Shown: positions 16,105 to 19,377, counted from the stretch's first letter. The stretch is DNA of 64,000 nt from an uncultured Planctomycetota bacterium (GCA_963752285.1 CAVVXN010000005.1:224001-288000), one strand, 5' to 3'. Translations and numbers: made by a program. Notes: generated by a model not told the origin, from the letters alone.

Positions 16105-16142
16105 AGGGGGCTCCGCCCCCTCCGCGCCGGCTTCGCCGTCGC
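16105..16142. repeat. Partial (38-bp) copy of the tRNA-associated repeat unit
   Basis: AGGGGGCTCCGCCCCCTCCGCGCCGGCTTCGCCGTCGC is identical to 17307-17344 and to the tandem copies, but lacks the tRNA 3' end. Confidence 0.9.
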
Positions 16143-17097: not shown

Positions 17098-17237
17098 GGA
17101 GCCCATCCTAAGGCGACGGCGTCGTGGGGAGCGAACGCGACGGAGGCGGCCCGTACTCAAGCCCGGCTCCGCCACGACCCCGACGAAGAGGCTCGCGCGC
17201 CGCGGGAGCTGGCGCGCGACGAGCGACGCGAGAAGTG

Positions 17238-17354
17238 TGGTAGCGGCGGTTGGACTTGAACCAACGACCGGTGCCTTCGGCCCCGGTCGAACGACGGGGT
17301 CATGTGAGGGGGCTCCGCCCCCTCCGCGCCGGCTTCGCCGTCGCTACCCCAGGC
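17238..17354 (-). repeat. Isolated 117-bp repeat unit ending in the tRNA-Met 3' end
   Basis: Identical to 18715-18831, 18895-19011 and 19075-19191; its first 32 nt on the + strand equal tRNA bases 19255-19286. Confidence 0.95.
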
Positions 17355-18190: not shown

Positions 18191-18736
18191 TTGCGGAGAG
18201 GCGCCCTGCGGATCGCGCAGCTTTCAGACACCCACGTTGTCATGGACGGGCTCGTCTCTGGGGCCGACAGCGCCCGGGGACTCTCCGTGGCGGTCGCGTA
18301 CCTCGCCGCATGCGCGCCCGCCCCCAACGTCGCGCTCGTCACCGGCGATCTCGTGCACGACGGTCCCGCCGAGGCGTACCGGCGGCCCGCCGACCTGCTC
18401 GGCGGACTCCCGTGTCCGTGGCACGTGATCCCGGGAAACCACGACGATCGTGCGTCGCTGCGCGCCGCACTCCCGGAGCACGCGTACCTGGGATCGTCCG
18501 GGCCGTGCCACTACGCGGTGGGGGACACGGGGCCCCTGCGCCTCGTGGGGCTCGACACGCGGAACGGTGGCGGGTGGCTCGGCCCCGCGCAGCTGTCGTG
18601 GCTCGACGCGCGCCTGGCGGAAAGGGCCAGGCGACCCACCGTCGTCTTCCTCCATCACCATCCCGTGCCGTCGGGGATCGCCGAGATTGACCGGATGGGG
18701 CTGCTCGAAGCCGATGGTAGCGGCGGTTGGACTTGA
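18191..18736 (+). pseudogene. Truncated metallophosphoesterase (CpdA/Icc-like phosphodiesterase)
   Basis: IAQLSDTH, VTGDL, PGNHDD, LDT and FLHHHP motifs are present. The reading frame runs into the repeat at 18715 and stops before the final GHxH motif. No ATG at the expected start. Confidence 0.75.
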
Positions 18737-19254
18737 ACCAACGACCGGTGCCTTCGGCCCCGGTCGAACGACGGGGTCATGTGAGGGGGCTCCGCCCCCT
18801 CCGCGCCGGCTTCGCCGTCGCTACCCCAGGCGTGGGGTCGTTGGCGGCGCGACGGGATCCGGACGACGCGCTCGTCCGAGCGACGCGAGAAGTGTGGTAG
18901 CGGCGGTTGGACTTGAACCAACGACCGGTGCCTTCGGCCCCGGTCGAACGACGGGGTCATGTGAGGGGGCTCCGCCCCCTCCGCGCCGGCTTCGCCGTCG
19001 CTACCCCAGGCGTGGGGTCGTTGGCGGCGCGACGGGATCCGGACGACGCGCTCGTCCGAGCGACGCGAGAAGTGTGGTAGCGGCGGTTGGACTTGAACCA
19101 ACGACCGGTGCCTTCGGCCCCGGTCGAACGACGGGGTCATGTGAGGGGGCTCCGCCCCCTCCGCGCCGGCTTCGCCGTCGCTACCCCAGGCGTGGGGTCG
19201 TTGGGGACGCGATCGGTACGGGCGGGGCCGGCACGACGAATGAAGCGAGAGGGA
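18715..19254 (-). repeat. Three 180-bp tandem units directly downstream of tRNA-Met, each carrying the tRNA 3' 32 nt
   Basis: TGGTAGCGGCGGTTGGACTTGAACCAACGACC at 18715, 18895, 19075 and 19255 (exact 180-bp period). Units 1 and 2 are identical; unit 3 differs in its 50 nt at 19205-19254. Confidence 0.97.
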
Positions 19255-19331
19255 TGGTAGCGGCGGTTGGACTTGAACCAACGACCCCACGCTTATGAAG
19301 CGTGTGCTCTAACCGGCTGAGCTACGCCGCC
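19255..19331 (-). tRNA. tRNA-Met (CAT), probably elongator
   Basis: GGCGGCGTAGCTCAGCCGGTTAGAGCACACGCTTCATAAGCGTGGGGTCGTTGGTTCAAGTCCAACCGCCGCTACCA folds as a full cloverleaf with CAT anticodon and encoded CCA. It lacks the initiator GGG/CCC anticodon stem; Ile2 is not fully excluded. Confidence 0.93.
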
Positions 19332-19348: not shown

Positions 19349-19377
19349 ACGGTAGCCCCTCCTTCGCGGGCGGTCAA
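19349..19377 (-). promoter_or_regulatory. Sigma70-type promoter of tRNA-Met
   Basis: Minus strand TTGACC-17 nt-TACCGT, ending 17 nt before the tRNA 5' end. Confidence 0.7.

Follow-up and report, generated by a model that had tools for sequence, protein, structure and literature searches.

Judged by its sequence, the array of three units that follows the tRNA-Met(CAT) gene of an uncultured Planctomycetota bacterium is a real and recurrent RtT-like repeat of the tRNA tail that carries a widespread, REP-like hairpin element. The array lies in a window of 64,000 nt (the whole stretch of DNA analyzed here, from whose first letter all positions are counted unless a contig or locus is named) of the genome denoted G000. 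The E. coli tyrT repeat has been a near-isolated curiosity for decades, and in the limited literature that we searched on the motif and on tRNA-linked repeats no such arrays were found outside E. coli; the same build is now seen in a distant, uncultured lineage. Its presence at several tRNA species suggests a general way of amplifying tRNA tails, and the arrays provide many natural variants with which to ask about the function of such repeats. The analysis also brings out a compact two-hairpin element headed by GGGGTAG, present in many phyla, as well as a tRNA-matched inverted fragment for which current models give no explanation.

The sole tRNA gene called in the window by ARAGORN and Rfam is an intact tRNA-Met(CAT) at 19255-19331 on the minus strand (70 bits with the Rfam tRNA model), the 3′ end of which is the repeated part. 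Just 3′ of this gene, at lower coordinates, Tandem Repeats Finder detects a 180-nt period in 3.2 copies (18715-19286), that is, three 180-nt units arranged head to tail, all on the minus strand. Unit 1 (19075-19254), which adjoins the tRNA, shows 87% identity with units 2 (18895-19074) and 3 (18715-18894), from which it differs in the spacer; units 2 and 3 are 100% identical, and the CCA end of unit 3 abuts a broken metallophosphoesterase gene. In the sense of the tRNA, each unit runs from a spacer (the spacer/trailer part of the repeated segment is ~50 nt) through a 15-nt inverted copy of part of the tRNA and an 85-nt GC-rich hairpin module beginning with GGGGTAG to a 32-nt tRNA tail. The tail, which comprises the end of the variable region, the T arm, the 3′ strand of the acceptor and ACCA, lies at 19075-19106 in unit 1, with further copies at 18895-18926, 18715-18746 and 17238-17269 (all minus strand), and matches the 3′ end of tRNA-Met exactly, CCA included, which bears out the intact T arm and CCA end of the original prediction. 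The module core of unit 1 (19144-19187, minus strand) consists of GGGGTAG, an imperfect palindrome with an A.G mismatch, CGGAG, the hairpin GGGGGC-GGA-GCCCCC and a final T. Directly 5′ of the module, the inverted copy (19190-19204, minus strand; 19010-19024 and 18830-18844 in units 2 and 3) is 100% complementary to positions 40-54 of tRNA-Met, covering the 3′ side of the anticodon stem, the variable region and the 5′ strand of the T stem; its match to tRNA-Met spans 15 nt, whereas none of 51 other tRNAs exceeds 8 nt. Contigs from four public DNA runs are short and end inside the repeats, with 18770-19051 uncovered and thus uninformative, and one of them overlaps itself by 180 nt, as expected of a tandem repeat.

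Behind tyrT and tyrV of E. coli K-12, a unit of 178 nt is present in 3.1 copies (older reports describe a tyrT repeat of 178 bp repeated 3.14 times), close to the 180 nt and 3.2 copies seen here, and the 3′ terminus of every unit reproduces the final 19 nt of tRNA-Tyr, including CCA. These E. coli repeats yield four matches to the Rfam family RtT (RF00391; 133-138 bits), and one copy is annotated as the sRNA RttR. In both cases the array stands directly behind the tRNA gene, the unit ends in the 3′ end of that tRNA with its CCA, and small GC hairpins are combined with a 5′ stretch complementary to the tRNA-derived part; the RtT consensus structure itself encloses several small GC hairpins within a closing stem, which a 5′ stretch forms with the tRNA-derived 3′ part. 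In contrast to E. coli tyrT, the copied tail is 32 nt rather than 19 nt long, the complementary stretch is directed to the variable region and the 5′ side of the T stem rather than to its 3′ side, and the build occurs at several tRNA species together with a widely dispersed module. Neither the RtT covariance model nor any other Rfam family matched the units between 17500 and 20500 at E values up to 1, so that the likeness to RtT is architectural and not one of homology. In E. coli, a small frame, tpr, is located within the tyrT repeats. Here, both strands are open across the whole array (18450-19298 on the plus and 18655-19290 on the minus strand), the periods of 180 and 183 nt in the two sister species being multiples of three; a G+C content of 73% alone suffices to account for such frames.

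The build recurs at other tRNA genes. A scan of G000, in which the 63 ARAGORN calls were searched for extra copies of their last 20 nt and the results passed to Tandem Repeats Finder, revealed three further such arrays in the host genome besides that of tRNA-Met. The tRNA-Val(GAC) array (contig 5, 1142952-1143754) has a period of 149 nt in 5.1 copies; the tRNA-Pro(CGG) array (contig 5, 2005903-2007290) has a first unit of 211 nt followed by a period of 444 nt in 2.7 copies; and tRNA-Pro(GGG) has a single extra tail at 444 nt. In three of the four Pro(CGG) units, an insert of ~240 nt occupies the loop of the second hairpin of the module, the stem of which is kept. In the sister species G001, the orthologous tRNA-Met array has a period of 183 nt in 2.8 copies, with 100% identity within the array and ~85% to G000, and the T stem of its units tracks that of the tRNA of G001 itself. 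Such identity inside arrays, set against the divergence between species, shows ongoing homogenization, a case of concerted evolution. G001 additionally carries a tRNA-Ala(GGC) array (184 nt, 3.0 copies) in which a homologous module is joined to a tRNA-Ala tail.

A strict module pattern was found in 7 of 40 genomes of the order, as against one match of a reversed control, and all matches in the order lie beside a tRNA gene or a remnant of one. The loci in relatives are at tRNA-Pro (G008), Val (G042), Asn (G002), Pro and Glu (G017) and Asp (G026); the three units at tRNA-Asp of G026 are not identical, the module of G042 is antisense to the tRNA, and at one G017 locus it merely faces tRNA-Glu. 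Across a sample of 401 genomes of the phylum, matches occurred in 10, four of them in the same order (G000, G001, G002, and G026); the six others are probably due to chance, since their number is about equal to that of the reversed-pattern control. Within G000, GGGGTAG is found in the sense orientation at most 300 nt downstream of 4 of 50 tRNAs, compared with 0.64 expected, and in the antisense orientation of none, and the distance from CCA to the module is 64-67 nt in 6 of the 10 loci measured. In this lineage, the module has the appearance of a regular component of tRNA trailers. At a locus of G012 (L008, 54-470), tRNA-Met is followed by two units of ~170 nt that have the same build and a different hairpin module, the inverted fragment of the second unit matching the T stem of the preceding tail copy and not that of the intact tRNA; arrays with another module imply that the GGGGTAG module is not required for array formation.

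The range of the module extends far beyond these arrays. A looser core pattern, scanned over one genome per species, identified at least 123 stretches, with ~1200 estimated; the matches listed come from Spirochaetota, Pseudomonadota, Myxococcota, Acidobacteriota, Actinomycetota, and Chloroflexota, among others, and the G026 array is one of the 123. Low-GC genomes each hold several copies of the module in the form of a compact element of ~100 nt, flanked by AT-rich sequence that is unique to the copy. Only 5 of the 123 loci listed have a tRNA beside the core, and a sixth ARAGORN call overlaps the element itself: at locus L074 (391-486), a dispersed element is reported as a 96-nt "tRNA-Cys," which is probably a false call caused by the three-hairpin shape. 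This compact three-hairpin form of ~100 nt, GGGGCGTTGC-hairpin-GGGGTAG-hairpin-CGNAG-hairpin-CAC, recurs many times in genomes of low-GC Myxococcota, Spirochaetota, and gut "Proteobacteria" (loci L096, L098, L122, L126, L127, and L133 among them) and has no Rfam family; at some loci of the Rhodobacterales type, an AANTAT box precedes the GGGG by 6-7 nt. Among 114 distinct cores, the first hairpin varies widely in sequence and nevertheless folds with nearly complete pairing, with 880 Watson-Crick and 19 G-U pairs. The G-U pairs reveal no strand asymmetry that would distinguish RNA from DNA or mark the strand that folds (19 sense vs. 11 antisense of ~900 pairs in these cores), no orientation bias relative to flanking frames was apparent in the 66 loci that could be scored, and no Rfam family covers the module, as the corresponding region of the window and 16 related loci returned only tRNAs and weak chance matches.

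With respect to the nature of this element, a study of GTAG-tagged REPs (PMC3733652) describes GC-rich, imperfect palindromes that have a stem of 6-13 bp and are tagged by an unpaired GTAG on one side, and mentions head-to-tail pairs, an arrangement that it calls rare. The module, with its GGGGTAG followed by GCGaCGGC-GAA-GCCGgCGC, combines the same unpaired GTAG and palindrome, has comparably long stems that hold an unpaired purine, and likewise occurs in either orientation between genes (PMC3733652). It differs from GTAG REPs in being a fixed, head-to-tail pair of hairpins, in its copy number (about a dozen in G000, where the module sites are the four tRNA loci and two fragments, as against hundreds for REPs), and in that no linked Y1 (RAYT) transposase gene was found. 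Moreover, G000 has no excess of GTAG-headed hairpins, which follow 6.7% of GTAG sites compared with 6.8-7.5% for six control tetramers. We conclude that the module core is recognizable as a REP-like, GTAG-tagged palindromic element dispersed across many phyla. Of the analogy to REP or attC sites originally drawn for the units, the REP half fits the module, while no recombinase accompanies the arrays.

On the distal side of the Met array, a lone displaced copy of the module and the tRNA 3′ end is situated at 17238-17354 (minus strand), 1.4 kb from the array; it is followed by the first 18 nt of the spacer (17220-17237) and is devoid of the inverted tRNA fragment. Part of the module (hairpins 1-2) recurs without change as a 38-nt fragment at 16105-16142 (minus strand). 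The 1.36-kb segment that separates the array from the displaced copy is single-copy and gene-bearing, and is placed exactly between a CCA end and a module start. It includes a metallophosphoesterase reading frame (18191-18736, plus strand) that enters unit 3 and is truncated there, its Pfam match ending at position 161 of the 191 positions of the profile; the frame is broken exactly at the CCA end of unit 3. On a related-strain contig from a public metagenome run, this gene extends past 18714 with other sequence, and no second copy or missing part was detected elsewhere in G000 (89% complete). The truncation at the array end, together with the longer gene in the related contig, indicates that the array end was a breakpoint. 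Between G000 and G001, synteny around the Met array is kept upstream and lost on the distal flank.

The reading of the arrays that we favor, with confidence somewhat above even, is an RtT-type tandem amplification of the tRNA tail together with a REP-like trailer element, kept uniform by unequal recombination and probably co-transcribed with the tRNA. Under this scheme, the arrays would arise in place by duplication of a segment that spans the tRNA tail and the module, with the new junction in the 5′ strand of the T stem, and would then grow and stay uniform as the tail copies undergo unequal homologous recombination or slip during replication, which is the simplest cause of the homogenization. 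The tRNA-Ala locus is informative in this regard: both flanks are syntenic between G000 and G001, and at ~100 nt 3′ of the tRNA the G000 locus shows one degenerate GGGGTAG element, without duplication, where G001 has three units. This comparison implies that the array grew in place. Two features are left without explanation by plain duplication. One is the inverted tRNA fragment, which across 10 loci is clear in five, eroded in three and absent in two; the other is the position of the junctions, which at no fewer than eight tRNA species fall in the T-stem 5′ strand.

These same features keep alive an alternative origin that we regard as unlikely, namely that the arrays derive from a small non-autonomous mobile element. 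In it, the inverted tRNA fragment and the tRNA tail would enclose the hairpin module as a foldback, a recombination site joined to tRNA T arms by an enzyme acting in trans, in the way of folded single-strand sites such as integron attC or CTX-phage attP, and its insertions would stack in tandem. Every junction falls within the T-stem 5′ strand, 2-9 nt ahead of the T loop. In five loci the inverted fragment is exact over 15, 14, 23, 9, and 9 nt; it corresponds throughout to tRNA positions 40-55(68), even where the tRNAs differ, and several unit folds pair it with the beginning of the tail. The inverted T-arm fragment of the Val array is a better match to the T arm of tRNA-Asp/Arg than to that of the local tRNA-Val. 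The retention of the CCA-to-module distance at unrelated tRNAs, the non-syntenic distal flank of the Met array, and the 1.36-kb gene-bearing segment placed precisely between a CCA end and a module start all speak for movement of this kind. Against it stand the tRNA-Ala comparison, which favors growth in place, the integrase-borne islands of G000, which use longer repeats starting from the anticodon arm and have no module, and the failure of any candidate enzyme to track the arrays in G000, G001, G002, G017, and G026.

Five enzyme families were searched in these five genomes, and none stands by the arrays or is present in all five. No tyrosine integrase (PF00589) was found on the array contig regions of the five genomes, nor any integrase among the 14 proteins neighboring the Met array. 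Y1 transposases occur in three of the five (one weak match in G000, none in G001 or G017), with no module beside their genes; in the module-bearing genomes G418-G422 outside the order, they are likewise present in three of five, with no module within ~1.5 kb. Reverse transcriptase is found in two of the five genomes and is absent from G000, G001, and G017, and neither the IS110 transposases (three of five genomes) nor the IS91 Y2 transposases (two of five) lie beside arrays. All these absences are weak evidence, given that the five genomes are 80-93% complete. As for integron attC and CTX-phage attP sites, the units resemble them in having an imperfect inverted repeat around a structured middle and in stacking in tandem at one chromosomal site; unlike those systems, the arrays have no integron integrase or recombinase beside them and the pairing in the module cores lacks strand asymmetry, and inspection of the units by eye found no attC consensus boxes.

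A variant that dispenses with a dedicated enzyme is less likely again: the foldback could be a protein-less, self-propagating mini-element that lands on tRNA T arms by way of a folded single strand and a host enzyme. If so, the inverted fragment would be its target-matching part, and the arrays would consist of piled-up insertions between which foreign DNA could lodge, a possibility suggested by the 1.36-kb segment.

The original prediction was that each unit can fold as an expanded tRNA mimic. In that reading, the 5′ GGTAGCG... of the unit closes an acceptor-like stem on the tail, and the RNA would be seen by RNase P, the CCA enzyme or an aminoacyl-tRNA synthetase. On the tRNA-sense strand of 19075-19191 the bases are all present as described, and a stem of GGTAGCGACGG with CCGCCGCTACC would have pairs at 10 of its 11 positions. 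The minimum-energy fold contains three of the four small hairpins that had been proposed to replace the D and anticodon arms (CGGC-GAA-GCCG, GAGGGGGC-GGA-GCCCCCTC, and GCC-GAA-GGC), with other pairings in place of the remaining one, the third. The fold holds in part, and its interpretation is likewise supported in part. The 11-bp closing stem books some bases twice, since its last CGG also serves hairpin 1 as 5′ strand and its last C also ends the T stem, and 7 bp of it (GGTAGCG:CGCTACC) are left in the minimum-energy fold. It also engages A73, C74, and C75, with the last A alone free, which makes it unlike the acceptor end of a tRNA and buries the CCA. The stability of the unit fold (z of -1.94, equaled by 12 of 200 shuffles) is unremarkable at 73% G+C, and the opposite strand reaches a z of -3.74. 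ARAGORN and the Rfam tRNA model call only 19255-19331 and pass over the units, which have neither recognition by a tRNA model nor the free NCCA end of a tRNA-like RNA.

Covariation was assessed on an alignment of the three units of the genus (Met of G000, Met of G001, and Ala of G001). The pairing of the internal hairpins and the T arm is held through eight double-sided changes, with 92.9% of cells paired, and none of 500 shuffles attains these values; when the partners are slid against each other, pairing in this three-unit alignment falls to 37-55%. In the closing helix, by contrast, five of seven pairs are invariant across the three units, two are broken in the Ala unit and none is changed on both sides, so the covariance check originally suggested for this stem goes against it. 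When the register was compared across ten kinds of unit, the number of closing-stem pairs out of 11 in the same register was 10 for Met of G000, 8 for Met of G001, 7 for Ala, 8, 8, 7, and 8 for four Pro units, 5 for Asp, 5 for Asn, and 4 for Gly. Much of this cross-unit pairing consists of a constant GGU facing A73-C74-C75, which can form with any tRNA whose discriminator is A. There is no variation in the 5′ strand, GGGGTAG..., which is common to the copies at other tRNAs and to elements with no tRNA nearby, whereas the 3′ strand varies with the local tRNA without compensating change. The proposed acceptor-like stem that would rebuild a tRNA finds no support in this comparison, with 4-8 of 11 pairs elsewhere.

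The internal hairpins, the intact T arm with CCA, the 10 and 8 of 11 pairs in the two Met units, and the RtT consensus, which likewise closes a stem onto its tRNA-derived 3′ part, can all be read in favor of a functional mimic. Nevertheless, the uncompensated closing helix, the lower pairing of the other units, the buried CCA end, the rejection of the units by tRNA finders, the 118 of 123 sampled loci at which the 5′ motif has no adjoining tRNA, and the antisense module of G042 together render it improbable. Because the 5′ motif is fixed and mostly located far from tRNAs, the closing stem here is best read as a by-product of the motif meeting the tail of tRNA-Met.

A promoter-like TTGACC-17 nt-TACCGT, read from the sequence, lies upstream of tRNA-Met at 19349-19377 (minus strand), and both hexamers and their spacing are also found upstream of the orthologous tRNA in G001; a simple scan for consensus promoters between 17100 and 19600 did not pick up this site and returned none, so the promoter originally proposed there stands as readable and conserved hexamers and not as a consensus match. 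The same interval contains no intrinsic-terminator-like site, in agreement with the absence of a terminator noted after the tRNA. Given the conserved promoter-like site before the tRNA and the lack of a terminator-like site after it, the units are probably co-transcribed with tRNA-Met. By analogy with the E. coli tyrT repeats, a real precedent for a processed, CCA-ended small RNA from a tRNA-linked repeat, the units may then be cut into CCA-ended RNAs. Bosl and Kersten reportedly demonstrated in 1991 the processing of the tyrT repeats, and two papers credit their work with an RNA derived from a single repeat unit of the tyrT operon, for which a role in the stringent response is considered possible.

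Finally, although tRNA 3′ ends are the classical targets of islands, direct repeats of the tRNA 3′ end downstream of an intact gene resemble island attachment repeats, G000 has islands at tRNA-Gly, Met (contig 1), Asn, and Arg with integrases nearby, and a preprint on marine integrative elements reportedly mentions partial-tRNA arrays at island sites, it is highly improbable that the arrays are leftover attachment sites of integrase-borne islands that were later deleted, considering that true islands are kilobases long and repeat ~50 nt from the anticodon arm on, that the arrays are short, with a regular period of 149-444 nt, a repeat beginning in the T stem and no integrase in the vicinity, that no island carries the module or the inverted fragment found in the arrays, and that no full-length island with an integrase and the module beside a tRNA tail was seen. 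The ordinary islands of G000 are located at 509-64613 and 817935-830330 on contig 1 and at 1089802-1099702 and 2151869-2189892 on contig 5, and the island site at tRNA-Gly has four successive repeats.
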